Of a DNA stretch of 64,000 bases, positions 1 to 64,000 are shown piece by piece. The stretch's first letter is position 1; each line of letters opens with the position of its first letter. The DNA is from a virus (taxonomy: Duplodnaviria > Heunggongvirae > Uroviricota > Caudoviricetes). Under the pieces are notes generated by a model. The model saw only the letters and a list, made by a program, of their open reading frames with translations. It did not search any database and was not told the origin of the DNA. The stretch is taken from positions 122,906 to 186,905 of IMG/VR virus record IMGVR_UViG_3300001528_000136. One strand, written 5' to 3'. Position numbers and translations under genes: made by a program.

Positions 1-954
1 CTTATCAAATGTTTCAACATTTATTCCGAGAAGTTCAAATAGTGGTATCACTTGTTTTTGACTACTCCAATTGATGACACACTTAGGTTCTAAATCAAAT
101 CCATTAAATAAATCACCTTGTGTATCTATTTTGGTAAACTGATTTTTAATTACTTTTTTATAAGCATCAATTAAGCCATAAGGAGTTCTTAAATCTTCTT
201 GTGGAAATCTTTTATATCCATCTTTAAGTAATTTTTTAACTTCTGTTTCATAATCAGCAGAATATTTAGGATAATTAGTTTCTGGATATTGTATATCATA
301 ACCACTATGAGGATTCTCTTTATCCCAAGCTACTACCCAAGCATTTAATTCAGAAACAGCCTCGTCAAGTTTAGCTTGGTCTTTAGCCATCTTAGTTTTC
401 CATTTAGTTATATCTAAATGTACTCCACAATACTTAAAATAAGCTAAAGATTTAACAAACTCACATTCTAACTCTACTGCGAGCTTCATATGTTGTTTCT
501 CTACTTCAATAGCTTGTTTATTCCAAATATCTTCAATATACATAACATCACCAGCAGCATAAAGACAGACTTCGATTGTAAGACCATCATTTATAATCTT
601 ACCTCGAACAGACTTATCAATATTGATATTTAGATAATTCCAAGCAGCAGCCTTTAAACTCTTTTCTCTCATATTAGCGGGATAACCTAAATATAAGAGC
701 TGTTCTACAATCATTCCATCCAATATCTTTTTAGGATAAATATGTTGAACATACAAAAAGGTTAAATCAAATTGTAGATTCCATCCTAAAAAAGTTCTAT
801 CAGACTCCAAATAATTTTTAACCCTTTTTTTATCCTTTTTAGATATAGAAGTCCAGTCAATAACCACTTGGTTATCTCTATTACCTAATTGAATAGTTAA
901 AAGAGTTTTAGTATGACAATCTACGGTTTTGTTATCCTATATGTGATTTAACAT
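1..954 (-). CDS. DNA polymerase family A (Pol I-like), N-terminal part of the protein (3'-5' exo region and start of the pol domain). The gene continues past the left window edge. It contains an in-frame TAG at 937-939.
   Basis: Minus-strand translation in the frame of +1-3 gives ...WNLQFDLTFL (Exo II-like), ...LYAAGDVMYIEDIWNKQ (Exo III YxxxD-like), ...GDLFNGFDLEPKCVINWSSQKQVIPLFELLGINVETFDK (Pol A N-terminal-domain motif). The first ATG is at 954-952, and an in-frame TAG lies 5 codons later at 939-937. An in-frame TAA at 1044-1042 bounds the frame upstream. An alternative GTG start at 1005 would add a second in-frame TAG at 1017-1015. No ORF appears in the supplied track because of the TAG. 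Confidence 0.6.
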
Positions 955-1587
955 ATAGTTCTTATGTTTCTTGTTTACATAAGCCCAGACTATATCATCT
1001 TCCACAAATAAATGCTAGGAAGGTGGGCGCTCGTGTCTCTATTATATTCTTCTTACGAAGTTTCAAGAGTTAGTCGTTGAACCTTCCAACTTTGTTAAAG
1101 GTTGGCTTGGCTGCGAATTTGGAATCTCACCATTCTCGCAATTCACCCACTTTGCTATCCCCATTTCTGAAGATAGGGACTCTTCTCTCTTTTTAAAATA
1201 AAGACCTTTATACTTGTTACCAGTTCTTATGGATAAATATATTTTATCCCTCCGCAATATACCTCCTTTTTTATTACATCCAGTAATTACTAAATGAGGC
1301 ATAATATGGGTTTCCGACCATTCGCATAAGTCAGTCACAGATCTAAAAATGACTATAAGATTTATATTCTTATCATATACTTCAACAGAACCAAACATAT
1401 TCCGTCTATTATACAATATACTCCTTTCTTACATAAATCGTCGAAATTTTTAATTCTTATATCCATAAGTAATAAATTTATTAATTTACTTATGATTATA
1501 AGAATTATTTGTGGATACTCAAGTTAAAGTATCTAAATTTTAAAATCCGTTAAAATCCTTTAGTCTCTGTATCAAGTTGACATAAAA

Positions 1588-1633
1588 AAAGAGGCTCTAG
1601 GATGGACATAGCCTCATCCATAGTAGCCTCTTT
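1588..1633. terminator. Long near-perfect hairpin flanked by an A-run and a T-run (candidate bidirectional rho-independent terminator)
   Basis: AAAGAGGCTCTAGGATGG...CCATAGTAGCCTCTTT inverted repeat. A7 lies upstream and TTTATATTTA downstream. It sits in an intergenic gap. Confidence 0.4.
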
Positions 1634-1680
1634 ATATTTATCAGTTTTAAATAAAGATTTATTTTGACTAACTAAATATA

Positions 1681-1941
1681 TCATTGGTAACTAGTTATAT
1701 AAGTATTATTTAATATTATGTCATCATTATCTATATTTAGTTTATCTTTAACAGCTTGTTCTACTGCTTCATGTAATTCATCTTCGTTTATATTCAAGTG
1801 CCCATTTTCTAAATATTGAGGTAAAGTAATATTTACAAATGTACCTACTTCTACATTAACTTCTACTTGAATATTCCTATCTAAAGGCTGATTATAAGGA
1901 GCATTTGGGTCATTAGCAGCTCCCATAGGATAATTACACAT
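1681..1941 (-). CDS. hypothetical protein (86 aa)
   Basis: Intact same-strand ORF. No motif recognised. Confidence 0.3.
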   Translation of the reverse strand: MCNYPMGAANDPNAPYNQPLDRNIQVEVNVEVGTFVNITLPQYLENGHLNINEDELHEAVEQAVKDKLNIDNDDIILNNTYITSYQ

Positions 1942-10387: not shown

Positions 10388-10876
10388 CTATTTCCAAAAC
10401 TTACTAGTTACGTCTTTAAGTTGATTATTAACTACTGAATACATTCTCTGATTAGTATTGGGATTATTTAGTGGTCCTTTTTCTTCTATATAAGCTCCAA
10501 GCTTGATATAATCAAAATTAATAAGGTCAATGTCTTTACTTAATTCTTGCCTTCCACTATACCAACCAACTTTTATATCATATAAATCTTTAACAGCTTC
10601 AGCTAGTGTATTAACATATTTTGGTCCAGAATCTCCTCCCATAAAACCAACACATGTAATACCCTCATTTTTATCTATTAAAGCATATAAAGTTTCTAAA
10701 TATAGTGGTTCACCTATATCATTAACTAAATAAGAACTGTGACATCCAGAACACTTGCATGGACAATTAGATATATTAATACAAAGTGATATTTCATCAG
10801 GAAATTCACTAAATGTCACCATTGTATCTACATATTTAAGCATCCCAAATCTCTTTAAGTTCTTCCCATATAGCAT
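10388..10876 (-). CDS. nrdG: anaerobic ribonucleotide reductase activating protein (radical SAM)
   Basis: Cys cluster CINISNCPCKCSGCHSSY resembles the NrdG radical-SAM/Fe-S motif. It is 162 aa and lies in the same operon as nrdD. Confidence 0.65.
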   Translation of the reverse strand: MLYGKNLKRFGMLKYVDTMVTFSEFPDEISLCINISNCPCKCSGCHSSYLVNDIGEPLYLETLYALIDKNEGITCVGFMGGDSGPKYVNTLAEAVKDLYDIKVGWYSGRQELSKDIDLINFDYIKLGAYIEEKGPLNNPNTNQRMYSVVNNQLKDVTSKFWK

Positions 10877-12308: not shown

Positions 12309-12719
12309 TTAAATAAGTGATTTAAATATTTTAACTATCTCTGATTTCTCAGCTGAAGGATATTTAGTTTGAATAGTCTCAATTACATATTTAGTATCTT
12401 TAATAGTTAATTGAGTTGTCTTAACTAAATTAGCTATACATGTATGAATCTGTTCTGTTGTAGGTTGTTTAGGAAGATACATTTTAATATATGTAATCTC
12501 ATTAGCTTCTTTAAATGCTAAATCATTTCTTCCTGCATCCTCATATATTTTAACAGCTTTCTCACGTTCTTTAATCATCTTTCTAAGTACTTCTACTTCC
12601 GTAATAGGTTTCTTAGAATGTTGATTCTCAATAAAAGCTGCCTTAATTAATTGACAAATCTCTAGTTCTGTTGTATTGCCATTTTTACGAGCCTCTGTAA
12701 TTAATTTATCAATGTCCAT
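12309..12719 (-). CDS. GatB/YqeY-domain protein
   Basis: C-terminal ...YEDAGRNDLAFKEANEITYIKMYLPKQ matches the YqeY/GatB_Yqey signature (RxDLaxkExxEi...yLPxq). Confidence 0.5.
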   Translation of the reverse strand: MDIDKLITEARKNGNTTELEICQLIKAAFIENQHSKKPITEVEVLRKMIKEREKAVKIYEDAGRNDLAFKEANEITYIKMYLPKQPTTEQIHTCIANLVKTTQLTIKDTKYVIETIQTKYPSAEKSEIVKIFKSLI

Positions 12720-16435: not shown

Positions 16436-17059
16436 TTACTTAAGTGTTTCCAAGAACTCATCAACATCAGGATATTCTTCATCATAAAGAACGTCATCAA
16501 TCTTGAACTCCTTAATTTTAAAATCAGGTCTACCATTTTCATGCCAATATTTTTCCACATGTTCAGCACTACTATTAGGACTACCAACACCTAGAGCCAT
16601 TGTCATATCGAATTGATTCACTTCTCTAGAATGACCACTATAAAAATCTCTGCACTTTTTGATATTAGTTATACACAAATCAACAATGCTCTTACCTACA
16701 AGCCCATTACCAATAAGAGTTTTTAGTGGTGGAACCTTTTTATAATCCCTGTAAGCTGGTCTATCTTTAGTTGCAGGCTTATAATCATCCTCTAAACCTC
16801 CTTTAATTAAATAGTCAATAAGAGTATCAAAAGTATCATTCCAATCATCTACAACACCATAAGCAATTTTAAAAGAGTCTCTTAAATAAATGAAATTCTC
16901 TTGTGACAAATAATGTCTTCTATAAAGAGGATCTTCTTCAGAATCTTTAAAGCCGCTTGTAATTAGTTTATCTATATCTATTGATGGTTGTGCCCATCTA
17001 TACATGTCTGCTAAACATTCATGTATTGCTTTACCAAGAACATCATTTCTTGTTAACAT
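16436..17059 (-). CDS. hypothetical protein (207 aa)
   Basis: Intact ORF. No motif recognised. Confidence 0.35.
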   Translation of the reverse strand: MLTRNDVLGKAIHECLADMYRWAQPSIDIDKLITSGFKDSEEDPLYRRHYLSQENFIYLRDSFKIAYGVVDDWNDTFDTLIDYLIKGGLEDDYKPATKDRPAYRDYKKVPPLKTLIGNGLVGKSIVDLCITNIKKCRDFYSGHSREVNQFDMTMALGVGSPNSSAEHVEKYWHENGRPDFKIKEFKIDDVLYDEEYPDVDEFLETLK

Positions 17060-17091
17060 ATTTTTCTAATTAATTGGTTATTGTATTTAAT

Positions 17092-18603
17092 CTAGTTATT
17101 ACCTTTGATAGTGCCCATCATCATATTATCTTTTGTAACTACAGAATAGTTAATACTCCACTTAGTATGCCCAAAGTTAGCTACAATATAATTACTACTT
17201 CCATACATACTGCCTACAGAAATATAATCAAACTGCTTACCAGTAGTATAAGCATAATTATGTAAATCTCCCTTAACTATATAGATATGGTCATTGTGGA
17301 GATTCATTTCTGCTAAATAATTAGCAAAATATAATTCAGTCTGAGGATTAAGTGTAAGCGGGAATTGGTGAGACTGACATGAATTGTCTTTGCCGTGAGT
17401 GAAAATCCATGAGTGCTTACCAATAGTGAAATGGTCAATGGGAAAGTTGCTTATATAACTCTTAATACCTTCATTGGCTAAATATGCAGCAAGTAACTTA
17501 TTATTTAACCAGCCCCAATTACCGTCGTGATTAGACTCACCTATACATAAATAGTTAAATTCATCACTTTTCACATTAGCTTTAAGAGACTTGAAGAACT
17601 CCATCATGCATTCCACATACGTCTCACTAATTTCCTTATCATCCATAATCTCTGGAAGCTGATGCCCACCTCTGGTAGTTTCCTTATTATATCCATCTAC
17701 TGAATCTCCAAGATTAACTACATATACAGCACCATAAGACTGTCCTGCAAAAGTCTGAACAATCTTAGTTAATCGAGATTTGATTTCTTCTTTATTATAG
17801 TTGGGAAGAGGTACGAAACTACTATATTTAGCATTATAAGCCCCAATATGTAAATCAGATAGCCAAATAATTAATATAGGATATTCCGGTTTAGTACATC
17901 GAGTATTTACAGGAAGTTCTTTATAATCCTTATTAGTAGCTTTAATTATTTCAATTAGTTTTTCTTCACTAATAGAACTCTTCATTTGTTCTTTAGTTAG
18001 TTTAATAACTAATTGTTTAAGGTCTTTAACCTCATCCTTTTCTATGGCTTTTAAGAAATCATTCTCCTTCTCACGTAATTGTATTTCTTTAAGCTCTTCA
18101 GGTGTATGTTCCTCGATAAAATGAGGTGCAAAGCTGGCAGAAGCTTTTGTGATGTTAAAAGCACGTAAAATGCGCTTAAAGTCAACTAAAGAATAGTCTG
18201 GAAAGTGTCTACTAACCTGACGCTGTGTAAGACTAGCACCATAATAAGAATATAGTCTATAGATAAGATTCATTTCATCTCTAGTTAAAGCACCTACTAC
18301 AGGAGTTTTATCACGACGAAATACTTTAAATCTATAGCTAACTATCTTACCATCTTCATCTCTAACTAATTCAGTCTCTGCTCTTTCATCATTATCAATG
18401 TGTTCTACAATATTACATTGTTTAACAGAATCATATAGAGAAATTAAATCTTCTTCCTGCCCGTTATCACGAGCATATTTAATTGCATTAGCTAGATTTC
18501 CATAGTTATATTTCTTAGCAGCACATGCCGCTTTTACGCTACAGTTATTATCCTTAGCATAATTTAATACCTTCTCTATATTCTTTCTGGTTTCCTTTTT
18601 CAT
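17092..18603 (-). CDS. calcineurin-like metallophosphoesterase with Mre11/SbcD-like motifs plus an N-terminal extra domain. The gene terminates at TAG.
   Basis: DLHIGAY (motif I), NLGDSVDG (GDxxD) and GESNHDGNWG (GNHD) in a 503-aa protein. The stop codon is TAG (17094-17092). The next in-frame TAA is 13 codons further downstream. Confidence 0.5.
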   Translation of the reverse strand: MKKETRKNIEKVLNYAKDNNCSVKAACAAKKYNYGNLANAIKYARDNGQEEDLISLYDSVKQCNIVEHIDNDERAETELVRDEDGKIVSYRFKVFRRDKTPVVGALTRDEMNLIYRLYSYYGASLTQRQVSRHFPDYSLVDFKRILRAFNITKASASFAPHFIEEHTPEELKEIQLREKENDFLKAIEKDEVKDLKQLVIKLTKEQMKSSISEEKLIEIIKATNKDYKELPVNTRCTKPEYPILIIWLSDLHIGAYNAKYSSFVPLPNYNKEEIKSRLTKIVQTFAGQSYGAVYVVNLGDSVDGYNKETTRGGHQLPEIMDDKEISETYVECMMEFFKSLKANVKSDEFNYLCIGESNHDGNWGWLNNKLLAAYLANEGIKSYISNFPIDHFTIGKHSWIFTHGKDNSCQSHQFPLTLNPQTELYFANYLAEMNLHNDHIYIVKGDLHNYAYTTGKQFDYISVGSMYGSSNYIVANFGHTKWSINYSVVTKDNMMMGTIKGNN

Positions 18604-27916: not shown

Positions 27917-28034
27917 GTATTATTAACATAATTAAATAGGTTAATCACTAGATTGGTATTACTAATTACAGTGTTATAATCTAGTTACGTGAATCATTCA
28001 TCTCTAATTTATTGCATATCTAAGCTTTCCTTAA

Positions 28035-28292
28035 CTATTCTGAAATAGTATCTGGAGCTTCTGGTATAATGCTATCAGGAGCTTCTGGTATAATGTCGTC
28101 TGGTTGAATATCTTCTGGCATTATATCCGTAGGAGTAAGTTCAAAGTCTGGCTCAAATACTACTTCTTTAGAATATTCAAGTTCTTTAATCTTCTTTTTA
28201 AGTTTTTCTACTTCTTTCTTCAACTTTTTGTTTTCACTAGTGAGAGTATTCTTCATTTTGTTATACTCTCGCTTTGTATAGTACATTTCCAT
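28035..28292 (-). CDS. hypothetical coiled-coil protein (85 aa)
   Basis: KKLKKEVEKLKKKIKELE heptad-like repeat. Confidence 0.3.
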   Translation of the reverse strand: MEMYYTKREYNKMKNTLTSENKKLKKEVEKLKKKIKELEYSKEVVFEPDFELTPTDIMPEDIQPDDIIPEAPDSIIPEAPDTISE

Positions 28293-29592: not shown

Positions 29593-30465
29593 TTACAAGT
29601 TTGTTTCTCTTGTAATATCCCAACCTTTCAATTCAGCTACCTTAATAATCTCTTTAGCTTTATCTTCCCATTGTTTTGCTTGTTTTTCACACTGCTCTTG
29701 GAAACGATAAAGTACTTTCTCAGATAAGAGTTTAAGCAAGTCAGAATCAAGATTTGAATATTTATCCTTACGTAACATATAAATAGTCTTGAACTCTTTA
29801 TAAGACAAACCAGTATCATTAATATACAACTTCTGATATGGCTTCAAATCAAGACGCATTTCTTCTGTTACAATTTGTAGTCTATCTTTCAATTTACCTG
29901 TATCTGGGTCTTTACGATACAAATCTTTCTGCATCTCTTGTGGGGTAAACCACAATCCCATCTTTAAGATAAAATTGAGAGTTATATGGCTAGTGTCTAC
30001 AATACCAAGTAGGTCAAGACAGGCATTCATCACAGTCTTAATCTTAACTCTTTCATATTCAGATGGAACACCTTCCATTATAGAACTAATAGGATAATTC
30101 TTAATAGTTTCTGCATCTATTTGTTCTTTATTTGTTGCTATGATATTTCGTAAATCCTCCAAGCATCTACTACGAGTATAGCCTTTCTCAGAGCCTAACC
30201 ATCTAACTAATAGTTCAGCTCTACAGCACTCGATCTGACTTTGTACGATGTCTAACAGAGTTAATCGCCCAGGATATTTGTCATTGGTATTATGCAACAT
30301 TTCTTGACAATGAAGATACCACTTGCGTAGTTGTTCATAAGTTGCATCAATGAGCTTAATCTCTTTTTGCTCTCCGTTTACTTTTGGACCTTTCCATACA
30401 AAGTTATTTACATCATTAGATTTGTTGTCTAAAGCAGCTTGAAGTTTTTCTCCTAAGATAGTCAT
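29593..30465 (-). CDS. hypothetical protein (290 aa)
   Basis: Intact ORF. Confidence 0.35.
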   Translation of the reverse strand: MTILGEKLQAALDNKSNDVNNFVWKGPKVNGEQKEIKLIDATYEQLRKWYLHCQEMLHNTNDKYPGRLTLLDIVQSQIECCRAELLVRWLGSEKGYTRSRCLEDLRNIIATNKEQIDAETIKNYPISSIMEGVPSEYERVKIKTVMNACLDLLGIVDTSHITLNFILKMGLWFTPQEMQKDLYRKDPDTGKLKDRLQIVTEEMRLDLKPYQKLYINDTGLSYKEFKTIYMLRKDKYSNLDSDLLKLLSEKVLYRFQEQCEKQAKQWEDKAKEIIKVAELKGWDITRETNL

Positions 30466-30530
30466 ATATAAATTCTCAATAATATTTTCATAGTAATCTA
30501 ATTTATGTGAATCTAACTATTATAATCTGT

Positions 30531-30857
30531 CTATTCTATTGTAATATCTGTAATATTAACCTTAGGTTTTTCTTCTATAAACTTTATAAAGATTATATTA
30601 GTATATTTATAAGGTATAAAATCTGTTCCGTCAAACCATTTATCTACTCCTTCTTCAACATATCTTATATTTAAATATCCAACATCACCTAGTTCCATTG
30701 CATTTTGATTCCAATTAGGAAAACGTACACACATTACATATTTAAAGTCAGGGTCTTGTGTTTCTAAATCTTCAAATACATAATTAGTATATCCCATAGA
30801 ATCCATACATTCAGCTAGTAGTTTAACATGTAGTGTTGTCTGTTGCATCCTCTTCAA
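30531..30857 (-). CDS. hypothetical protein (108 aa)
   Basis: Intact ORF. Confidence 0.3.
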   Translation of the reverse strand: MKRMQQTTLHVKLLAECMDSMGYTNYVFEDLETQDPDFKYVMCVRFPNWNQNAMELGDVGYLNIRYVEEGVDKWFDGTDFIPYKYTNIIFIKFIEEKPKVNITDITIE

Positions 30858-35507: not shown

Positions 35508-35687
35508 CTACTTAACAAGTGAATCAACATTTACTAAATCTAAATTATTTACAGAATCTTTAGATAAGGTATCAACTACGGTAGTATCGACTCTCGCACT
35601 ATCTGAAGAGTCTACAGACCTAGAACAACCATTACCACCGCATGAAGCAAGGAAGGCAATGATTGCAAAAATAAAAAGTTTCTTCAT
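35508..35687 (-). CDS. small lipoprotein (59 aa). It terminates at TAG, and read-through would add 6 aa to the TAA at 35487.
   Basis: MKKLFIFAIIAFLASCGGNGC... has a signal peptide + LASC lipobox. Below the ORF-track size cutoff. The stop is TAG at 35510-35508. Confidence 0.4.
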   Translation of the reverse strand: MKKLFIFAIIAFLASCGGNGCSRSVDSSDSARVDTTVVDTLSKDSVNNLDLVNVDSLVK

Positions 35688-38844: not shown

Positions 38845-38869
38845 ATATTTAATTAGTTAAATAATTTAG

Positions 38870-38953
38870 TTGTCTGAGAGAGATTCGAACTCCCGAAGCT
38901 AAATAGCGGCTGATTTACAGTCAGCTGTGGTTGACCACTTCACATATCAGACA
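38870..38953 (-). tRNA. tRNA-Tyr (anticodon GUA), class II with a long variable arm
   Basis: Hand fold: acceptor TGTCTGA/TCAGACA. Anticodon stem GCTGA/TCAGC with loop CTGTAAA. Long variable arm. T-arm GGGAG-TTCGAAT-CTCTC. Confidence 0.55.
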
Positions 38954-38962
38954 ATAATTAGT

Positions 38963-39032
38963 TGCCGAGGTTGGAATTGCACCAACGTCCTCTAGCTTAT
39001 GAGGCTAGCAAGCTACTACTGCTCCACTCGGC
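38963..39032 (-). tRNA. tRNA-Met/Ile (anticodon CAU), short D-arm
   Basis: Acceptor GCCGAGT/CCTCGGC. Anticodon stem CTAGC/GCTAG with loop CTCATAA. T-stem GTTGG/CCAAC. Confidence 0.45.
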
Positions 39033-39196
39033 GATATAATATTAAAAGGAATAGTCGGCAGGGGTTTTGCTTTTAGTATCATCCTAACGTTGCTTCTTCC
39101 ATATCAAAATAACCTTCTTTAATTCATAAGGTAACGTTACCTCCCTACTACATAATCCGTGAGTTATAATGATATTGATACATACCCCCATGTTAA

Positions 39197-39270
39197 GGGC
39201 TTCCACCCAGACTCGAACTGAGAAAAACTGATTACAAATCAGTCATTTTACCGATTAAAATTACAGAAGC
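39197..39270 (-). tRNA. tRNA-Thr (anticodon UGU)
   Basis: Acceptor GCTTCTG/TGGAAGC. D-arm ATTT-TAATCGGTA-AAAT. Anticodon stem ACTGA/TCAGT with loop TTTGTAA. T-arm CTCAG-TTCGAGT-CTGGG. Confidence 0.55.
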
Positions 39271-39275
39271 ATTAG

Positions 39276-39349
39276 TGGACCACTAGAGAATCGAACTCTA
39301 CACAGAAATCTTGCAAGGATTCCTCGCCAGCCTTGGTACATGGCAGCCC
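39276..39349 (-). tRNA. tRNA-Ala (anticodon UGC) with G3:U70
   Basis: Acceptor GGGCTGC/GTGGTCC gives a G3-U70 wobble, the Ala identity element. Anticodon stem GAATC/GATTT with loop CTTGCAA. T-arm TAGAG-TTCGATT-CTCTA. The D-arm is atypical. Confidence 0.45.
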
Positions 39350-39589
39350 AAATATATAGATTTAATAAGTATGAATCATCACTCCTTACATCAGTAAGTA
39401 CCCATTTGGTACTTACTCTCAGAAATCTAATTAATTAAATAATTGGTGGCATATACAATCTACAATACTGATTTGCATACCATTCCCAAGCTTTTTTCAA
39501 GCCTTTAAGATAAGATTTCACAATTCTTTTCATACAATTAAAAAATTAATAGTTAATTTAATTAATCTAATTATATTACAGAAGGAGTG

Positions 39590-39662
39590 AGCAGGATAAG
39601 GGATTCAAACCCTCCCATTCAGCTTGGAAGGCTGACATGCTATCACTAACACCAATCCTGCA
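39590..39662 (-). tRNA. tRNA-Gly (anticodon UCC)
   Basis: Acceptor GCAGGAT/ATCCTGC. Anticodon stem TCAGC/GCTGA with loop CTTCCAA. T-arm GAGGG-TTTGAAT-CCCTT. Confidence 0.55.
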
Positions 39663-40294: not shown

Positions 40295-40463
40295 ATCTTA
40301 TTCCCAAATAAGCAGCTATTATAGTATTAACTATAGGACAAATAATAAGAAACCATAGTAAACAACTATCTGGAACCTTTCTTTTATCACATCTATCAAC
40401 TATGAAACAAATGCTAGCTAACCATGTTATAATAAGAAAAACCCATAATATAATACTAGTCAT
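40248..40463 (-). CDS. small membrane protein (71 aa)
   Basis: Two hydrophobic helices. Confidence 0.3.
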   Translation of the reverse strand: MTSIILWVFLIITWLASICFIVDRCDKRKVPDSCLLWFLIICPIVNTIIAAYLGIRYGNWKESLKVLFSND

Positions 40464-41631
40464 AAATAGTTCCTGCTTCTATTATATTAGAATCTTCACT
40501 CATTCCTAGATAAACATGGTCTATGGGTAAATCCCATAACATAAGACTTTTTATAAAAGCTTGCTTAAATAAGGACTTAGGTGGCAAACAATTGTTATGA
40601 ATAGGAATATTATCATCTTTGATGCAATCCCAATGTGTGACTACTATATTGAATTTAAGATTATACTTTTCATTGTAATTATCAAGTCTATGTCTATCTA
40701 TAACTCTACCAAATAGTGGAAAATCAAAAGCGCCTCTCTTAAATACTCCTTGTACTCCATCATCACTATTAGAGGGTTCATCTAAAGTAAAGTATTTAGT
40801 TAAATCACATTTGTCATTAAATTCCCATCCATTACCATGTCTAGTTAGATAGGGTCTCATAACTAAATAGACCTCCATAGGATTCTTAAAGTTAGATTCA
40901 GGAATACCATTAAGACCTGTTTTACTAGGAGTGCAATGAGGCATAAATCCACAATCCATATCTAATAAAAGACCTTGTGAACCTTCCCATATTACAGTAT
41001 CAAAATCATAACTAAGTCTTTGGTCATTAACTGGACTCCATGATACTATTTTAAATGTATCTTCTTTAGTGCGCAAAAAGTCACAAGCTTTTATAAAGAG
41101 TTCTTCTAAAGACTGGTCTTTACCAAATTTATAATATTCTCTAATATCTTCCAAATATGTTATAGGATAAGTTATAAGGTCTCGAACATTATAAAAACTC
41201 CATTCATTAGAAAGATTCTGGTATCTCTCATAAGTATTGTAAATACCTTTGCCACATGTACCATCCTTATGTATCTTTTCATTAAGAGAGTTAGCTAGGA
41301 CATCATAAGGTGAAATTATTCTACACTCACTATTAATATACAGAGGTGGAACTTCTACTCCTTCTTTAATTAGCGTTTCGTACTCATTATAGATACATAT
41401 AGGGTCTATAAATACATTCTTATTTAAATAGGTTGGAATACCAAGTAGTACACCAGAACCCCAAGAACTACAAATATGAGACTTACCACTATAAACCACC
41501 CTATGACCTGCCTGGGGACCCCCACTAAAGCGATGGACGATAGGTCTTCTACTGTTTTGGCACAGCCATTGAACAGTATTCCCTTTACCAGAGTCACCAA
41601 AGAATGCATCAATTACTACTTTGTGTTGCAT
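40456..41631 (-). CDS. adenylosuccinate synthetase family protein (PurA/PurZ-like)
   Basis: N-terminal P-loop VVIDAFFGDSGKGNTVQW (PurA QWGDEGKGK-like). GTCGKGIYNTYERY (PurA GTTxxGIGPAY-like). 391 aa. Confidence 0.65.
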   Translation of the reverse strand: MQHKVVIDAFFGDSGKGNTVQWLCQNSRRPIVHRFSGGPQAGHRVVYSGKSHICSSWGSGVLLGIPTYLNKNVFIDPICIYNEYETLIKEGVEVPPLYINSECRIISPYDVLANSLNEKIHKDGTCGKGIYNTYERYQNLSNEWSFYNVRDLITYPITYLEDIREYYKFGKDQSLEELFIKACDFLRTKEDTFKIVSWSPVNDQRLSYDFDTVIWEGSQGLLLDMDCGFMPHCTPSKTGLNGIPESNFKNPMEVYLVMRPYLTRHGNGWEFNDKCDLTKYFTLDEPSNSDDGVQGVFKRGAFDFPLFGRVIDRHRLDNYNEKYNLKFNIVVTHWDCIKDDNIPIHNNCLPPKSLFKQAFIKSLMLWDLPIDHVYLGMSEDSNIIEAGTIYD

Positions 41632-44859: not shown

Positions 44860-47334
44860 TCAATTAACAAGTTTCTTACACCAATACCATAGTTCTCTAA
44901 TAACAGGAACTGCCGCAGTAACTCCCACTATCTTCAACCATGTCATAATGTCAAGAGGTTCTGTTCTAAATACATCACCACCAAATTGAACTATAAGTAC
45001 TTGACCTATAAATATAACTAAGCAAATACCTATAAATGCTGGATTTTTAAATAGACCATTGAATATGCTTCTATCCTGATTAAATACTCTAGCATTAAAT
45101 AGATTCCAGAATTGAAGCATTACAAAGATGGTAAAGAACTCAGTAAGTGAACAGATATTACTAATTAATAAGTATAGTAGAATACCAGTATAGATAAGTC
45201 CTACACCAAGAATCTCTGTCCACATTGGTTTAGTTATAATGAATGCTTTAGGGTCTCTAGGACTTTCTGACATTACAGCATCATTAGCTGGTTCAGTAGC
45301 TAAAGCAAGAGCCGCAAATGTATCCATAATTAGATTTACCCATAGCATCTGAGTTACAGTAAATGGTAAATCTACTCCTACAAATGGTCCTACACAAGCA
45401 ATAAGTATAGCTACAACATTGACAGTAAGCTGGAACAAGATAAAGTGTTGAATATTCTTATATAGACTTCTGCCCCACTTTACTCCTAAGATAATAGAAG
45501 GAAAAGAATTGTCTAACAAAATAACATCTGCTGCATTCTTAGCTATGTCAGTACCATTATTCATAGCTATACCTACCTCAGCTTGATTAAGAGCTGCTGA
45601 ATCATTACTACCATCTCCCACACTAGCAACAACCTCGCCCATTTGTTGGAATCGCTTAACTAATTCCTGTTTATCTTCAGGTCTAGTTCTAGCAAATACA
45701 TCTGTCTTAGCTAAGTTAGACATAGTTTGTCCAACTATATCATTTCCTAACATATAATTAGGAGTTTGAGATATATTTGCATCTTTAGCTATAGAACATG
45801 CAGTTTCTGGATTATCACCTGTTACTATCTTGACTTTGATTCCTGCGTTTCTAGCTACTTTAATTGCATCAGGTACATTAGTCCTAACAGGGTCTTCAAT
45901 AGCTACATAGCCGTCCCATATGAACTCATTAAGGGTATTTATATCTTTTGACACCTTATGAGCAAAGGCTATACAACGGCGACCTAATTTCTGTTGTTCA
46001 GCTACATTAGATATACCAATAGAATCTTTACAATATTTAGCTATAATTTCTGGGGCGCCCTTAATAAATATACGAGTTTCATTATCAAAATTAACAGCGG
46101 TAATCATATATTTATTTTTACTATTAAAGTCTACTCTATTAACTATAGAATATTCCTTTCTAATAGTATCAATGTCAGTTTCATCAAGGTCTGCCCATTT
46201 AAGACATGCTCCTTCAGTTGGATTTCCTATTGTATTACCATCTTTATCAAGACATGCAGTAGAGTTAAGAACAATATTAAAGTGTGTATTTTCATTAACT
46301 CCTTCTTGATATACTACTTTCATCTTATTCTCTGTTAGGGTTCCCGTTTTATCAGTAAGAATAAGAGTAGTAGAACCAAGTGTTTCACAAGCGTGCATCT
46401 TTCTAATTAGGTTATTAGACTTAGCCATTCTCTTCATAGAATATGCAAGAGCTAATGTTACAGCCATAGGTAAACCTTCAGGAACAGCTACTACAATAAG
46501 AGCTACAGCAATCATTAAGAATTGTAAACAATCATTTACAATACCAATTACTTCTTTACCTACATAGCCTTGTTCTATAAAGATATATCTAACTAATAGA
46601 GATATAATCAGAATAGCAGCAGCACTAAATGCTATCTTATTAATTAGACTAGCTAGACCATTTAATTGCTTATTAAGAGGAGTTTCTACATCAGTAATAG
46701 AAGAAGCTTCTCTTGCAGTCTTGCCAATCTCAGTTTCATCACCTATTGCAATCACTTCACAAGTACATGTACCTTCCGATACTATAGTACTCTTATAAAT
46801 ACAGTTAGTAGGATAAGTGCCATTAGCTTTATCATAATCATATTTAGATACTGGAACACTCTCACCTGTCAAAGAGGATTCATCTACTTTAAGATTCATA
46901 TATTCCCTAACTATGCAATCAGCAGGAATCTCTTCACCAGCACTAAGTATTACTATATCACCTACTACTAAGGCTCTTCTAGGTACTTCTAAAATATTAT
47001 CATCTCTTCTTACTTTAACTAGAGTATCATCACTACTAGTTAGGAGTAAGTCAAACTTCTTAGAAGCTGACCAAGTATTCCAGAATCCTAAACCTACTGC
47101 AATAGCTATGGCTGCTATAATACCAATAGGTTCTGAATACTCCGTTTTTATTATACCTATAACTAAAGAGATACATGCTGCTACTAACAAAATAACTATA
47201 AGAGGGTCTTTAAAACCGTCAAATAGCATTTTATACCAAGGATCTCTCTTAGGAGGTGTAAGTACATTATAACCGAAAGAAGATTGAAGAGCCTGTACTT
47301 CTGAACCACTTAATCCTTTACTTATATCTGTCAT
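44860..47334 (-). CDS. P2-type (SERCA/PMCA-like, probably Ca2+) cation-transporting P-type ATPase
   Basis: LTGESVPV (TGES actuator). PEGLPMAVTLALAYSMKRMAK (PEGLP, M4). ILTDKTGTLTENKM (DKTGTLT phosphorylation site). VGDGSNDSAALNQAEVGIAM (GDGxND). 824 aa with about 8-10 TM helices. Confidence 0.85.
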   Translation of the reverse strand: MTDISKGLSGSEVQALQSSFGYNVLTPPKRDPWYKMLFDGFKDPLIVILLVAACISLVIGIIKTEYSEPIGIIAAIAIAVGLGFWNTWSASKKFDLLLTSSDDTLVKVRRDDNILEVPRRALVVGDIVILSAGEEIPADCIVREYMNLKVDESSLTGESVPVSKYDYDKANGTYPTNCIYKSTIVSEGTCTCEVIAIGDETEIGKTAREASSITDVETPLNKQLNGLASLINKIAFSAAAILIISLLVRYIFIEQGYVGKEVIGIVNDCLQFLMIAVALIVVAVPEGLPMAVTLALAYSMKRMAKSNNLIRKMHACETLGSTTLILTDKTGTLTENKMKVVYQEGVNENTHFNIVLNSTACLDKDGNTIGNPTEGACLKWADLDETDIDTIRKEYSIVNRVDFNSKNKYMITAVNFDNETRIFIKGAPEIIAKYCKDSIGISNVAEQQKLGRRCIAFAHKVSKDINTLNEFIWDGYVAIEDPVRTNVPDAIKVARNAGIKVKIVTGDNPETACSIAKDANISQTPNYMLGNDIVGQTMSNLAKTDVFARTRPEDKQELVKRFQQMGEVVASVGDGSNDSAALNQAEVGIAMNNGTDIAKNAADVILLDNSFPSIILGVKWGRSLYKNIQHFILFQLTVNVVAILIACVGPFVGVDLPFTVTQMLWVNLIMDTFAALALATEPANDAVMSESPRDPKAFIITKPMWTEILGVGLIYTGILLYLLISNICSLTEFFTIFVMLQFWNLFNARVFNQDRSIFNGLFKNPAFIGICLVIFIGQVLIVQFGGDVFRTEPLDIMTWLKIVGVTAAVPVIRELWYWCKKLVN

Positions 47335-58521: not shown

Positions 58522-58914
58522 ATTTTTTTAATTATTTAAGTTAATAAATAAAATAAGGAAACACACTAAAATAGTGCATTTCCTCTTAATAAAATTCTAA
58601 CTAAATAGAGTTACTGAAACCTAGTATTTCTAGTATATCAAAGACTAATACTTCTGAGTATATCCGCAGTACTTATCACATTGTACTCTGTGATTTACCT
58701 CCTCTAATATTGACCATAAGCCAACCCTCCGAGCCAGTACATTTTTTAAGCCCACCTCCTGTCAAGATATACCCAATATCTTAATATTATTAATGTCAAA
58801 AATAAAAGGAGCCTATCTTCTCAGACAAGCTCCTCAATGCAATTAAGTGTATCTCGCTAGATACAACTCTAAACGTATTCTATAATTTTTCAACATGAAT
58901 CTTTGTTTAATTAG

Positions 58915-58987
58915 AAAGTACAACAAGACTCGAACTTGTATCTAAGGACTAAAGGTCCTTTGCTCTAACCAATTGAGCTATGTACTC
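58915..58987 (-). tRNA. tRNA-Lys-like (anticodon UUU) with an unusual anticodon loop (C at position 33, or a 6-bp stem with a 5-nt loop)
   Basis: Acceptor GAGTACA/TGTACTT. D-arm GCTC-AATTGGTTA-GAGC. Anticodon region AAGGA-CCTTTAG-TCCTT. T-arm ACAAG-TTCGAGT-CTTGT. Confidence 0.4.
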
Positions 58988-59147
58988 CACTACGAATCAC
59001 ACGTAGAAACATTCTGTCATACTGAATGTATAACCCTAGTTAGTTGATTATGTGCTACCACATACTGCCATAACGGATAGCCTCAGACAGCCTATTCCAG
59101 CGATTAAGCATCTGGACATGCTTTTATACTAGTATTGCTATATAGCC

Positions 59148-59570
59148 TTAATTATGTTTATTGGGTTTAAATAAGAATAGTTGAATTATATGAAAGAACA
59201 CAATAGAGAAAAATAATACACAATATACTCGTATATTACACTCTTCATAGGAAATATGTAATGAATGTGCAATATTAATTAAATCATTCATGCACAGAGT
59301 AAATGGGTCTTTAACTTCTCCATAGTGTTTCCAAAACATATCAGTTATACCTATATAAAAAATAAGTAAGCTGATATTTAAGGATACTCTACATCTTCCC
59401 AAAAATGTTTTAATTGTACTATATCGTAAAGATAATAAAGCACTCATAATACATATTATAGGACAAGCATAGATACATATGTAAACACTAGTCTCTTTAT
59501 AAGACCAATCAAATAGAAGCCCTATTAAATAGAGACATCCACATAAGAACATAAAAATTAATTTAAGCAT
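59148..59570 (-). CDS. integral membrane protein (140 aa, about 4 TM), possible lysis-cassette component
   Basis: Hydrophobic helices throughout. Adjacent to the TAG-rich peptidoglycan-binding gene. Confidence 0.35.
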   Translation of the reverse strand: MLKLIFMFLCGCLYLIGLLFDWSYKETSVYICIYACPIICIMSALLSLRYSTIKTFLGRCRVSLNISLLIFYIGITDMFWKHYGEVKDPFTLCMNDLINIAHSLHISYEECNIRVYCVLFFSIVFFHIIQLFLFKPNKHN

Positions 59571-59719: not shown

Positions 59720-61015
59720 TTAAAATTTTATTCCAGTTACAACTTTCTTAGCTCCTAACAGAGCATTTGAAGAAAATGGTCCAAAACCATAATCCCATAC
59801 ATCATATGTTTTACCATTGTTTCCATTTAAGTCTGTAATAATACTAAAATTACCATGTTGAGCATAAGGGTCTCCTCCAGATACAGAGAATATAATATGC
59901 TTACCGTCTTTTGATAACTTAACATTATCACTTTTATTTAAATTGCCAATATTTTTCTTAACATAATCTCTAGCCCAAGCTTGTTCGGCAGCTCTTGCTT
60001 TAGGGTCTGTAAATGTATAAGTAGAATCACCTTCATTAGTTACATATCCAAAATCAGTAGACCAAGTGTTATACTTCTATGGTTGATTTCCATGAAGTAA
60101 ATTCTGATCCATTCTACCTCTAATCTTAAATTGTCTGGATTTCATGTCTCTTCCTCCTGGTCCCCATTTAGGTTCTTCCTATTTAATAATATTCCACAAG
60201 CTATCTGCTGTAGTATAATTATTCTTATCATTTAAATCTAAATCAGCAAACTCCTATGAAGCTTTGCCAGCCTTAGAAGACCCTGTAATTCCTTTAACAA
60301 ATTTAGTACCAAATCCGTATATTCCTCCTATACCTACATCATTTCCATCAATCTTCACGTGTGCATTTAATCCTTTACTATCTAAAAATTTATTAACTGC
60401 CTATGTATCCTTAGAGTTATCATAACCAAAAGGAAACATATTATTTAAAGTTGATGAAACCATACCTCCTAATCCTTTAGATACTTCTCTAGGGTCAACT
60501 TTTAAATTTTTATTCTTTCCTAAATTATATAATACATTGTTGTCTATAGCATCTTGCTATGCCCTCTTCTTCTTAACTTGATAATCTTGCCAAGCTTTTT
60601 CACTTTGCTAGCCCCAATCTCCATCAACAGCTATTTTATAACCATTTTTCACTAATTCTTGTTGTTTAGCTGTAGCACCTGTTATATCATAACCTGCACC
60701 ATGTTTAGCTAACAATTTAGAGTTATAGTGCGATTGTTTCTATCTATATTGCTTAGCATCTTTATCAGCCTTAGAACTCATCTATTTAATATTACTCATT
60801 TTCTAATTAGCCCATTCCTGATTTCTTTGATTCTAACCAGTAATAGCTAATCCTAATGTACTAGATGCAAACTAATTGGATTTCTAAGGAGTTCTCTATT
60901 TAACCCTTTGTTTAGAATGTCTTATGTCATCTAAAACAATCTAAGTTCCCATACCTGCAACATCCTAAGTGTAGGCATTCTAAGCCTACAGTCTTTTTAC
61001 TAATTCACTTGCCAT
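59720..61015 (-). CDS. TAG-recoded gene (432 codons, 17 in-frame TAG). It encodes a protein with a PG_binding_1-like peptidoglycan-binding motif and is a putative late/lysis protein.
   Basis: ATG at 61015-61013. TAA at 59722-59720. Checked codon by codon on the minus strand: 17 TAG (at + 60077, 60179, 60254, 60401, 60557, 60608, 60740, 60782, 60803, 60833, 60872, 60884, 60896, 60941, 60965, 60980, 60986) and zero TAA/TGA in frame. The translated segment ...KLLAKHGAGYDITGATAKQQELVKNGYKIAVDGDWGxQSEKAWQDYQ... matches the PG-binding signature vDGxfGxxTxxAvxxFQ. Confidence 0.7.
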
Positions 61016-61220: not shown

Positions 61221-62333
61221 AACCACCTCATAGAGGATTAAAAATACTATGAATAAGAGCGTCTTCTCACACATGGCTGAAAAGTATCTTACAAATTAGA
61301 GTGTAACTAAATAGTATTAACTAAATAGATTACGTAAGATAAATTTGTGAGGCACCAACGAGTATATTTAATTAGAGTAACTTCCACCGCTCATAGTTGC
61401 TCCCGTATTAGACGAAACTCCAGATAAATAGTTATTAGCTAGCATCTATTCAATGAAATTAAAGGGTTTGAACCTCTGTTTCTCTTATTCTATACATTAT
61501 TAAATAAATACCTACTTGTATCTCAATTTATTTCATAACTAATTTAAGCACATGCTTATTTCATTATTACTTTAAATATATGATAATGTCTCTTATTAAT
61601 TCTCTTCCCTAATTAATAGAAAGGAGTGTGCACAATATATTCAGAGACTAAATTCCGCAATCTCCCATTTACAGCTGATAGAGAGATTTATAAGAACCAA
61701 ATACTTCCTTTATAAGGAAAGTGAGTAAATATTTAATAATGTATAACTAGTATTTTATGATTCTAGTATTATAAAATTCTAACAGTATTTATATATTCTA
61801 ACAGTATCTATATATTCTATTACCACTAAATAGTGGAGCTAGAGGGTACTGCCCCCTCGTCTTACATATTCGCATCAAAACATTCTTACAGCTTAGGTTT
61901 TAAAGACTATCCTTGTCTAGTAACAAATAAACCTTTAAAAATATGAATTTGCACTTTTCTGTTCCTAAGTAAGTGCTACTCGGTTTCTCAGGCTACTATA
62001 GCAACTGGAGAAACAGAAGAATTATTTACTCTTTCGCCTTTTATTGTTTTGTCGTATTTCCGACTGTCTTTGCTGTGTTTTTTATCTCCTATGCAATCAA
62101 ATGCTAGTTTAGCCCCGTATTTCTTTTATTAAATAAAACTACCTATTTTCACAAACCAGTAGTTTTTTAACATATTGTGTATTACGATGATAAAAATTAT
62201 TAATATTAAAAAGAGCATCAATCTTCACAGACTAATACTTTATAAATGTTTCAAAATAATATTCAATTTAATCACTTATCTTCACAGACTAGCAATTATA
62301 TAAACAATTTATACCAATATGGTACAGAATGAG

Positions 62334-62418
62334 TGCTCCTGACGTGATTTGAACACGCAATTCCCAAGGGACAGTGGTGTTTAAGACCACTCTGTATACC
62401 AAATTCCAGCACAGGAGC
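62334..62418 (-). tRNA. tRNA-Leu (anticodon UAA), class II
   Basis: Acceptor GCTCCTG/CAGGAGC. Anticodon stem GTGGT/ACCAC with loop CTTAAAC. Long variable arm. T-loop TTCAAAT. Confidence 0.6.
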
Positions 62419-62500
62419 TTATTTTTATAAATAAACTACTCTATCTTCACAGACTAAGTAGTTTAACCATTATGTACAAAAAACGAGTTAAATATAAGTG

Positions 62501-62575
62501 TGATTCCTATGAGATTTGAACTCATGCCCCTCAGATTAAAAATCTAATGCTCTAAACCAACTGAGCTAAGGAATC
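62501..62575 (-). tRNA. tRNA-Lys (anticodon UUU)
   Basis: Acceptor GATTCCT/AGGAATC. D-arm GCTC-AGTTGGTTTA-GAGC. Anticodon stem TTAGA/TCTGA with loop TTTTTAA. T-arm ATGAG-TTCAAAT-CTCAT. Confidence 0.6.
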
Positions 62576-62859
62576 AAGTGAGGCAGCTTCTGTTAAAGCC
62601 CTTATTAAGTCCAATTCTAGCTATTAGAATATTTGACACCTCATTTGTCTAACTATTACTAGTTAGTTCTGTCTATTTATTTTACGTGGGATTCGAGAGA
62701 CTTTTCTTATGTAACATCATCCTATTTATATAATTATAGGATTTAAAGCTATACAGCCCACAACTATTAGTAATAATACTAATTAGATGACACTAACTCA
62801 AGTGTAGTTACTTGTTTTATAGTGAACTACTAACTATTGGAAAATTTACACGCAAAAGC

Positions 62860-63225: not shown

Positions 63226-63361
63226 ATTTAATTAAATATCATTGAAGCTATTACTGACACTATTAATAATAATACAATCCATGCAATTGTATGACAAAAA
63301 CAAAAAGTTCCAATAAGTAACAATATGAAAAAGAATAATGTTCTAATTACAAATTCCTCCA

Positions 63362-63757: not shown

Positions 63758-63927
63758 AATCTATTTAATTTAAAAGTTAATAATCTAGTTAATATTCTGA
63801 TTTGTAATTAATATACTATTTAACTAATTAAGTAAAATAAAACTATCTATTCTCACGAACCAATAGTCTTATATCTGCGTTTACTTGATTTTTCATAACT
63901 CTAAATATTACAAAACAGAATTGTTTG

Positions 63928-64000
63928 TGGACCAGCTAGGGCTTGAACCTAGGACCTCCAGATTATGAGTCTGTTGCTCTAACCAACTGAGCTACAAGTC
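63928..64000 (-). tRNA. tRNA-Met/Ile (anticodon CAU), truncated at the 5' end by the window edge
   Basis: T-arm CTAGG-TTCAAGC-CCTAG. Anticodon loop CTCATAA. D-arm GCTC-AGTTGGTTA-GAGC. The 5' strand of the acceptor lies beyond position 64000. Confidence 0.45.

Follow-up and report, generated by a model that had tools for sequence, protein, structure and literature searches.

Dual use of TAG as a stop and a glutamine codon in an uncultured gut phage lineage

Introduction

A dual-code model with delayed suppression exists in the literature for gut phages that include the crAss-like and Lak groups, and the survey behind it found that lysis genes are preferentially recoded and that just 40% of genomes with recoded TAG have a detectable suppressor (bioRxiv 10.1101/2021.08.26.457843). 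That TAG is read as glutamine in recoded gut phages has been confirmed by proteomics (Peters et al., PMC9523058). Dual stop-codon use within one phage genome is therefore already described, and the locus studied here adds an example rather than a principle.

We analysed a window of 64,000 nucleotides (positions refer to this whole stretch of DNA), which represents the part of an uncultured gut phage genome devoted to replication and nucleotide metabolism. Every gene lies on the same strand, the set including NrdD, NrdG-like, DnaB, ligase, RNase H, dUTPase and PolA, and all features described below are on the minus strand. The lineage has genomes or contigs of about 120–190 kb, and gut metagenomes supply dozens of contigs of about 100–190 kb, including three IMG/VR contigs of 186–188 kb (3300045988_079570, _075357 and _058566). 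Exact-protein look-ups for four window ORFs and a scan of IMG/VR with an exact 37-mer gave no match. Like the crAss-like, Lak and 'gemstone' code 15 phages, this is a low-GC gut phage whose replication genes fit the standard code (Borges et al., bioRxiv 10.1101/2021.08.26.457843; Peters et al., PMC9523058). As in those phages, in-frame TAG stands for glutamine in other genes while remaining a legitimate terminator in some, and a cell-wall-related gene family prefers TAG over CAA and CAG. Unlike in those phages, the recoded gene stands alone on the early strand, flanked by tRNA and tmRNA genes, and no suppressor tRNA was found in the window or the related DNA examined. The lineage also resembles phAss-1 and the proposed Phassvirus group, human-gut phages of about 130–140 kb that are rich in tRNA genes and have TAG in about 28% of ORFs, but tRNA-Sup(CTA) genes, two or three in number, are present in phAss-1 and its close relatives (PMC10607447). 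We found no sequence similarity between phAss-1 and the window. Being well sampled, with clean early TAG stops, one extremely TAG-dense gene and no suppressor detected in either tRNA cluster, the lineage is a convenient test case for two questions: how TAG is decoded in the majority of TAG-recoded phages, and what becomes of TAG-terminated early proteins after the switch.

TAG terminates early genes

A gene for a phosphoesterase/exonuclease-like protein of 503 amino acids (17092..18603) matched the PHROG exonuclease families phrog_22398 and phrog_284, and a Metallophos domain was detected among the window ORFs. A first-pass annotation of the window had ended this gene at the TAG at 17094-17092; the ORF list agrees, and the C termini of orthologues coincide there. 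The same terminal residue closes 38 orthologues from IMG/VR (...GT[I/V]KG[N/S]N), with TAG as the following codon in 19 of the 38 and TAA or TGA in the other 19. TAG predominated among the closest IMG/VR orthologues (19 of 21), and 17 of the 19 that use TAG carry a TAA TAA pair three codons past it, whereas more distant orthologues have TAA TGA exactly at the position of the window's TAG. The relative MT835492 stops at the identical residue with a different codon (...GTIKGNN-TAA, compared with ...GTIKGNN-TAG in the window). Because all 38 orthologues end at this residue, the comparison indicates that the phosphoesterase TAG is a genuine stop.

The first-pass annotation had also predicted that read-through would run to a TAA near 17053 and overlap the next gene. 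We found 12 sense codons (IKYNNQLIRKIC) followed by TAA at 17055-17053, a hypothetical read-through stretch (17053..17091) that covers the start of the downstream gene. This gene (16436..17059, 207 amino acids, ATG at 17059) is in a different frame from the phosphoesterase, and its orthologue in relatives reads MLTR(S/N)D... Read-through would be predicted to change the C terminus of the phosphoesterase from ...KGNN to ...KGNNQIKYNNQLIRKIC. The extension is not conserved: relatives show ISI and then TAA TAA, or no extension.

TAG ends 12 of the 112 ORF-genes in the window, compared with 69 for TAA and 31 for TGA. A second clear early gene ending in TAG is NrdG-like (anaerobic ribonucleotide reductase activase; 10388..10876), and an adenylosuccinate-synthetase (PurA/PurZ)-like gene (40456..41631) stops in the same way. 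The PurZ-like gene is missing from close relatives. The small lipoprotein gene that had been reported to end at TAG does so: its 59-amino-acid ORF (35687..35508) has a lipoprotein signal (MKKLFIFAIIAFLASC..., lipobox LASC), and the next in-frame TAA lies 6 codons on. Read-through would add 0–22 codons to the TAG-ending genes, and late suppression of the window's TAG stops would thus cost only tails of 0–22 residues. Backup stops were not enriched, the next in-frame stop being no nearer after TAG-ending genes than after others (Mann–Whitney p = 0.6).

Extensions this short would often be harmless, and in two relatives an in-frame fusion of the phosphoesterase to its downstream neighbour is what read-through would produce; both observations would suit a phage in which TAG is always sense, through the host or through constitutive suppression, and TAG-ended early proteins invariably run on to the following TAA or TGA. 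We consider this very unlikely. TAG stands exactly where more distant orthologues place TAA TGA, what comes after it shows no conservation at the protein level, TAA TAA follows three codons later in most close relatives, and internal TAG is avoided by 111 of the 112 genes, with 17 in the remaining one. The first-pass suggestion that the host might decode TAG is likewise disfavoured, because TAG occurs exactly at conserved C termini where relatives have TAA. We know of no gut bacterium that reads TAG as glutamine.

One gene is written with TAG as glutamine

The exception is a gene of 431 codons (59720..61015) encoding a peptidoglycan-binding-domain protein. As previously claimed, this one gene reads through 17 TAGs; we counted exactly that number in frame between the ATG at 61015 and the TAA at 59720. 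TAG accounts for 52% of its glutamine-equivalent codons, and 431 codons without TAA or TGA would have a chance probability of about 2.5e-20 at the off-frame stop frequencies of the window. The family is conserved, with 8–18 TAGs per orthologue at partly different positions. PG_binding_1 matched 9 of 25 homologues of the protein, the best solved-structure matches were peptidoglycan-binding domains of cell-wall hydrolases, and PHROG returned an endolysin match. The AlphaFold model of an orthologue (P0002) was poor (pLDDT 58).

Orthologues exchange TAG mainly with glutamine codons. Across the TAG-rich orthologues, the codon partners of TAG were TAG (67), CAA (58), CAG (19), AAA (23) and AAG (15), so that CAA and CAG together make up 77 of the non-TAG partners as against 38 for lysine, all of the compared homologues being themselves recoded. 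The C-terminal domain with a ...QPQKY motif is common to the window protein and three orthologues; in the glutamine column of the motif the window has TAG, and the three have CAG, CAG and CAA. Because TAG is swapped mainly with CAA and CAG, the codon comparison indicates that TAG in this family means glutamine. In MT835492, reading TAG as sense raises the ORF coverage of the opposite (minus) strand from 16 kb to 69 kb. We conclude that TAG has been reassigned to glutamine in some of the lineage's genes.

The gene is the sole one of its kind in the 64 kb, and a tblastn search found no homologue of its protein among INPHARED phage records, as might be expected of a relic that is defunct or untranslated and was acquired from a phage recoded throughout. 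This explanation is extremely unlikely given that the frame is intact over all 431 codons, that at least 8 divergent orthologues share the same architecture and that the interchange of TAG with CAA and CAG at conserved columns indicates selection on the protein.

The gene had been described as late, a label whose sole basis was the peptidoglycan-binding domain. That domain is present, but the gene lies on the strand of the replication genes, among tRNA genes and outside any structural or lysis module, and the label is an assumption. A promoter scan gave background level only.

A group I intron accounts for the polymerase TAG

The DNA polymerase I gene had been presented as a second gene using TAG as a sense codon. 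We found the TAG in question, at 939, to be part of a group I intron of 631 nucleotides (924..1554) that separates exon 1 (1684..1555, located by tblastn) from exon 2 (923..<1). Rfam RF00028 matched at 1211..967 with 70 bits (gathering score 50; E 1.5e-17). The spliced polymerase is free of stops and reads ...DTETKGLDCHTK..., like 20 relatives. The splice junction, GGA T|TA GAT, gives ...KGLDCHTK..., matching uninterrupted relatives, with exon 1 ending in T and the intron in G. Once the intron is removed, the replication genes contain no in-frame TAG. A group I intron in a polymerase gene can thus mimic 'recoding', which is a warning for annotation.

Loss of the polymerase example narrows the first-pass claim that TAG is both stop and sense, which now stands on the 12 TAG stops among 112 genes and the 17-TAG gene. 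The proposed fit to a temporally regulated suppressor is affected in the same way: the dual use of TAG is real, conserved in relatives and in keeping with the published model, whereas the polymerase example arose from the intron. The reading that we regard as probable is that TAG is a stop in early genes and that one TAG-written gene awaits amber decoding, the decoder lying elsewhere in the genome or being a non-canonical tRNA. Host release factor 1 (RF1) would read the TAG stops during early-gene translation, and the 17 TAGs would prevent translation of a potentially cell-wall-active protein until the onset of amber decoding, by a decoder that would be encoded elsewhere or would differ from a canonical tRNA. 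The temporal order and the lysis role of the TAG-rich protein are what we infer within this model.

No canonical CUA tRNA in the window or in the tRNA clusters sampled from relatives

Nine tRNAs without a CUA anticodon had been folded by hand in the window; ARAGORN found the same nine, none with CUA, and Rfam recovered eight of the nine and added none. One cluster (38869..39661) holds Tyr-GUA, Met-CAU, Thr-UGU, Ala-UGC and Gly-UCC. We reached clusters of this type in relatives by means of a tRNA-Tyr DNA pattern, and a CUA anticodon was absent from them in 16 relatives. The end of a second cluster, with Leu-UAA, Lys-UUU and Met-CAU (62333..64000), is cut by the window edge and has a LytTR-domain gene within it (62860..63225). 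Relatives extend this second cluster with Arg, Phe, Trp, Asn, Glu, Ser and Gln-UUG tRNAs, again without CUA. The window also encodes a YqeY-like (YqeY/GatB-like) ORF.

Searches with ARAGORN and Rfam detected no canonical CUA tRNA in the window, in MT835492 (121.6 kb, without terminal overlap and so possibly incomplete) or in 125 related loci, and about 1.9 Mb of related sequence spanning both tRNA clusters likewise gave none. Looser ARAGORN settings (intron-tolerant, low-threshold) returned only noise. A 'tRNA-Pyl(cta)' candidate in MT835492 was rejected for its poor fold and its location within an ORF that contains TAG, and a second odd tRNA of relatives was rejected as a suppressor, being a tRNA-Lys(UUU) with a D-loop insertion. 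A GGQ-motif search found no release factor in the window or MT835492, and no aminoacyl-tRNA synthetase was found in the DNA examined. The earlier proposal that the suppressor lies outside the window is weakened by these searches, given that MT835492 and both clusters of the sampled relatives also lack a CUA tRNA.

A divergent tmRNA adjoins the recoded gene

Just upstream of the TAG-rich gene is a tmRNA (61831..62116), which matched Rfam RF00023 over the full model length with 33.6 bits (E 4.6e-12). Because this score is below the gathering score of 47 and ARAGORN does not call the gene, we class it as a divergent, reduced member of the family. It fits the tRNA-Ala-like domain of a tmRNA, whose marks are a 7-bp acceptor stem with G3.U70, an ACCA-like 3' end and a T arm: GGGGCUA pairs with UAGCUCC, G3.U70 included, and the T stem, GAGGG/CCCUC in the window, has changed in a compensatory manner to GACGG/CCGUC in MT835492. 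The tag frame in the window reads (A)GERVNNSSVSPVAIVA and then UGA, and the tags of relatives read ARVINMTPVSYAIAA-UAA and GEVNNTSVSYAIAA-UAA, in keeping with the hydrophobic, alanine-rich C terminus and stop expected of a tmRNA tag. MT835492 and two further relatives have a conserved copy of the tmRNA.

One alternative to the decoder that we favour is amber decoding with no suppressor tRNA at all: RF1 would be disabled or outcompeted, a near-cognate Gln-tRNA would read UAG and tmRNA would clear run-off ribosomes, with the phage tRNA-Gln(UUG) and the YqeY/GatB-like protein possibly helping in the reading of UAG. The conserved tmRNA beside the recoded gene, the YqeY-like ORF in the window and the lack of a CUA tRNA in the window, MT835492 and the roughly 1.9 Mb of related loci are consistent with such a system, as is the 60% of TAG-recoded phage genomes that have no detectable suppressor (bioRxiv 10.1101/2021.08.26.457843). 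In RF1-free recoded E. coli, near-cognate suppression, frameshifting and tmRNA deal with UAG in the absence of a dedicated decoder (PMC6207430). This engineered bacterium may be comparable to a lineage that has tmRNA and no suppressor, and removal of RF1 by the window phage would be hypothetical. However, 17 consecutive near-cognate events would demand very efficient decoding, no RF1 inhibitor was identified, MT835492 may be incomplete, and about 100 kb or more of the genomes of closer relatives lay outside the search. On balance we think that decoding of this kind is fairly unlikely.

An aberrant tRNA-like gene and a conserved RNA element

Both of the Lys-UUU tRNAs reported earlier are called, but the one at 58987..58914 has an abnormal anticodon loop, CCUUUAG, with C at position 33, and is probably not a lysine decoder. 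It departs from a canonical tRNA-Lys(UUU) not only in C33: the loops of its orthologues are 5–7 nucleotides long and their 'anticodons' vary, with the rest of the molecule conserved. The label given by the tRNA caller accordingly differs between relatives (Lys, Tyr, Arg or Pyl), which calls for caution in annotation. Directly 5' of this gene is a conserved non-coding RNA element of 163 nucleotides (58988..59150) that is near-identical in 18 distinct sequences, contains two covarying hairpins and has no match to an Rfam family. The tRNA cluster of phage T4 also holds non-tRNA structured RNAs, probably released by tRNA-processing enzymes; the T4 small stable RNAs resemble the 163-nucleotide RNA and tRNA-like gene in being structured non-tRNA RNAs within a tRNA cluster, but the element has no sequence relationship to them.

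One alternative is that the tRNA-like gene and its orthologues are themselves an amber/ochre decoder with an unorthodox anticodon loop. In the window and several relatives the tRNA-like gene closely follows the TAG-rich gene on its downstream side. Most orthologous loops end in N-U-A-A (CACUAA, CACCUAA, CAUUAA, UGUAA and UGAUAA), ARAGORN called two orthologues tRNA(cta), and the first pair is a weak G1.U72, a weak first pair being favoured by bacterial GlnRS. By contrast, relatives with a GUA or AUA loop keep 13–18 in-frame TAGs in the recoded gene, which indicates that TAG decoding there is independent of the aberrant tRNA. No decoding is known for loops of 5–6 nucleotides, the tRNA body is similar to that of tRNA-Arg(CCU), with the constant UAA representing the ancestral 3' half of that loop, and MT835492 is heavily recoded yet lacks the module. 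A decoding role is thus highly improbable.

We also considered whether the lineage decodes the 8–18 UAGs per gene without a canonical CUA tRNA by means of a termination switch, such as neutralization of RF1, of which the tmRNA, the YqeY/GatB-like protein and possibly the 163-nucleotide RNA and tRNA-like module would be parts; we judge this speculative proposal unlikely. A terminator-like hairpin (58835..58806) follows the tRNA-like gene.

The window belongs to a TAG-recoded phage lineage

The nearest GenBank phage record to the window is MT835492.1 (121.6 kb, from human faeces), which shares approximately 70% nucleotide identity over parts of it. Closer relatives come from IMG/VR and ENA gut-metagenome contigs (about 100–190 kb; approximately 85% protein identity). 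In the second half of MT835492, ORF coverage of the opposite strand increased from 16 kb to 69 kb once TAG was treated as a sense codon, and the longest ORF was then 3402 codons. Because this strand opens only with TAG as sense, the lineage is that of a TAG-recoded phage, with the window as its standard-code arm. The window has a G+C content of approximately 30%, with long ORFs essentially all on the minus strand. Its recognizable products are replication and nucleotide-metabolism proteins, and it encodes NrdD with an ATP-cone, a NrdG-like protein, a DnaB-type helicase, DNA ligase, RNase H, dUTPase, thioredoxin and a sigma-70-like factor.

TAG serves as both a sense codon and a terminator

The first-pass annotation had described a gene that reads through 17 TAGs, and this gene is real. 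It encodes a peptidoglycan-binding-domain protein and extends from an ATG at 61015 to a TAA at 59720 (minus strand), 431 codons uninterrupted by TAA or TGA, a run with a chance probability of approximately 2.5e-20 given the off-frame stop frequencies in the window. TAG makes up 17 of its 33 glutamine-equivalent codons. The protein has full-length database homologues at 32–70% identity, and their genes carry 8–18 in-frame TAGs each. The database had translated these TAGs as Q, and the glutamines of the homologues are therefore not independent evidence. When orthologues were compared at the codon level, the partners opposite TAG were TAG (67), CAA (58), CAG (19), AAA (23) and AAG (15), with all others rarer; TAG exchanged with CAA and CAG even though lysine codons are three times commoner than glutamine codons in this gene. 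The glutamine column of the …QPQKY motif is TAG in the window and CAG, CAG and CAA in the three orthologues that have this C-terminal domain. From these comparisons, glutamine is the best-supported meaning of TAG in this gene. The protein may act in lysis. Pfam PG_binding_1 matched 9 of 25 homologues, residues 66–150 matched a PHROG endolysin family, and the family profile hit solved structures of cell-wall hydrolases in their peptidoglycan-binding domains. The rest of the protein matched no recognizable family, and AlphaFold modelled an orthologue poorly (pLDDT 58).

We also confirmed that the 503-aa phosphoesterase/exonuclease-like ORF (18603..17092, minus strand) ends at TAG (17094–17092). 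Past this codon, twelve sense codons (IKYNNQLIRKIC) precede a TAA at 17055–17053, so that read-through would, as previously noted, overlap the next gene, whose ATG lies at 17059 in a different frame. The small lipoprotein gene (35687..35508; 59 aa, with a classic lipoprotein signal, …FLASC…) likewise ends in TAG. In a simple non-overlapping ORF set of 112 window genes, 69 ended in TAA, 31 in TGA and 12 in TAG, the last including the NrdG-like and PurA/PurZ-like genes. Read-through tails of these 12 genes would be 0–22 residues long, and the other genes in the set had their next stop just as far away.

Phosphoesterase termination could be followed across relatives. The orthologue in MT835492 is 62% identical and terminates in …GTIKGNN-TAA-TGA, the window protein in …GTIKGNN-TAG, with an identical final residue, and the C terminus …GT(I/V)KG(N/S)N lies at an invariant position in 38 IMG/VR orthologues. 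A distant clade (n = 17) uses TAA and then a second stop; the close clade uses TAG in 19 of 21 members, 17 of which continue with ISI and then TAA TAA. Given this shared C-terminal position and the TAG in the close clade, the TAG terminator of this early gene is conserved, and the sequence beyond it is not conserved as protein. TAG is thus used in two ways, as a stop and as glutamine, and both uses are conserved.

In two relatives (among the fetched loci L047–L087), the open frame after the phosphoesterase TAG runs in frame into the next gene (…KGSN-TAG-MSIKSWKNRNYMLTRSD…), and amber suppression there would yield a fusion of the two proteins. The TAG-ending ORFs 30462..30857 and 27966..28292 (minus strand) have 22-codon read-through tails, each with two further in-frame TAGs, and the tail of the former finishes where it overlaps the next gene at ATGA. 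Both tails could be further genuinely recoded C termini.

The DNA polymerase gene contains a group I intron

Contrary to the claim that the polymerase gene, too, reads TAG as sense, the TAGs at 1041, 1017 and 939 proved to be intron sequence. The polymerase N terminus reads MIYLVS…LCQLD(S/T)ETKGLDCHTK in relatives; in the window, positions 1684..1555 encode it and the coding sequence picks up again at 923. The intervening 631 nt (924..1554, minus strand), directly after the ExoI motif of the DNA polymerase I gene (…DTETKG|LDCH…), matched the Rfam group I intron model at 1211..967 (70 bits, E 1.5e-17), and its 5′ and 3′ splice sites are preceded by U and G, respectively. Joining 1555 to 923 (GGA T|TA GAT) gives …KGLDCHTK… and a spliced product without a stop. 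This intron was absent from all 20 closest relatives examined. A 117-aa ORF (1416..1063) with no family match overlaps its core. The dual use of TAG is real but ordinary for such phages, and one of its supports was an intron artefact.

Search for the amber decoder

ARAGORN recovered all nine tRNAs that had been folded by hand, and Rfam eight of the nine. In agreement with the first-pass annotation, neither found a CUA anticodon in the window, permissive thresholds in intergenic regions included. The tRNA-Ala(UGC) called by ARAGORN at 39275..39349 (minus strand) was unrecovered by the Rfam tRNA model even at E <= 10; it may be the element previously described as 'armless', because relatives have a canonical copy. 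The whole MT835492 record contained six tRNAs, none with CUA, and a low-score CUA candidate was rejected as lying inside a coding region. We fetched 125 related loci spanning the polymerase and phosphoesterase neighbourhoods and both tRNA clusters of relatives, the first with Arg, Phe, Trp, Lys, Asn, Glu, Ser, Gln-UUG, Leu, Ile and Met and the second with Ala, Gly, Asp, Thr, Met and Tyr. None of the 125 loci contained a canonical suppressor tRNA. Because each close relative extends for 100 kb or more beyond these loci and MT835492 may be incomplete, a suppressor may be encoded elsewhere in the phage genome. A window lacking a suppressor agrees with the published survey of TAG-recoded genomes, only 40% of which had a detected suppressor (bioRxiv 10.1101/2021.08.26.457843). 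We found no release factor in the window or MT835492. Window ORFs matched 34 Pfam families, and the 25 commonest of these included no aminoacyl-tRNA synthetase. In some relatives, tRNA-Lys(UUU) has a 9–13-nt hairpin inserted in the D loop and is for this reason mis-called by ARAGORN (L009 7340..7410, L010 6777..6865, L014 3022..3109 and L019 2237..2324).

An aberrant tRNA-like gene at 58987..58914 (minus strand), called Lys-UUU, has the anticodon loop CCUUUAG. Its positional orthologues share a conserved body resembling tRNA-Arg(CCU), with loops of 5–7 nt (CAUUAA, UGUAA, UGAUAA, CACUAA, UAUAA, CACCUAA, UAGGUC and UAGUAA); most end in UAA, whereas the window loop ends in UAG. The ARAGORN assignment varied with the relative between '???', Tyr, Arg and Pyl(cta), and callers also gave Pyl/Sup(cta). 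An amber-decoding role for this RNA is unlikely, because relatives with GUA- or AUA-type loops retain 13–18 TAGs in the recoded gene. Always fused to the 5′ side of the tRNA-like gene is a 163-nt non-coding element (58988..59150, minus strand; also in L004, L009, L012–L019 and L094–L105), almost invariant in 18 distinct sequences, with two covarying hairpins and no Rfam family match. This element is absent from MT835492 and directly follows tRNA-Leu in several relatives. A simple possibility is that the tRNA-like part acts as a processing handle.

The window also encodes a free-standing YqeY/GatB-C-terminal-like protein (12309..12719, minus strand; Pfam YqeY, PHROG 1460 'tRNA amidotransferase'). 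Some GlnRS enzymes bind tRNA-Gln through this domain, whose presence is suggestive in a phage that reads TAG as glutamine.

A tmRNA adjoins the recoded gene

A short distance upstream of the TAG-rich gene is a divergent, reduced tmRNA of 286 nt (61831..62116, minus strand). It covers the full Rfam tmRNA model at 33.6 bits (E 4.6e-12), below the gathering score of 47, and our ARAGORN run made no call for it. Its acceptor stem carries G3.U70, and its T stem shows a compensatory change in MT835492. The tmRNA is conserved in MT835492 (L001 4011..4355), L119 and L097. The window tag is (A)GERVNNSSVSPVAIVA-UGA, its frame ending …PVAIVA-UGA compared with …SYAIAA-UAA in relatives. This adjacency, together with the missing suppressor tRNA in the window, MT835492 and the loci searched, lends some plausibility to the main rival explanation, a suppressor-free switch acting on termination. 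RF1-free E. coli resolves UAG by near-cognate tRNAs, frameshifting and tmRNA (PMC6207430).

The published dual-code model (bioRxiv 10.1101/2021.08.26.457843; PMC9523058) remains the best-supported reading. Under the dual-code model, RF1 would still read TAG at the time of early-gene translation; a gene harmful if made early would be written with many TAGs and stay silent until amber decoding became available, and TAG-terminated early proteins would later gain short, harmless tails. The temporally regulated suppressor proposed in the first-pass annotation retains the dual use of TAG, in the terminators and the 17-TAG gene, and loses the polymerase; its timing, and a suppressor as the decoder, are presumed. 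This well-sampled lineage is of moderate interest as a place to look for the missing decoder.

Other gene content

Cargo rarer for such a phage arm comprised two TerD proteins, an 824-aa P-type cation-transporting ATPase (44860..47334, minus strand) and a PurA/PurZ-like enzyme. The window further encodes a Band-7 protein as well as an acyl-carrier-like one, and these, with the ATPase and the two TerD-domain proteins, are unusual for a phage replication arm. The adenylosuccinate-synthetase-like gene (40456..41631, minus strand) had its best PHROG match in the PurZ family (2-aminoadenine pathway), and its relatives were found in two distant IMG/VR contigs only.
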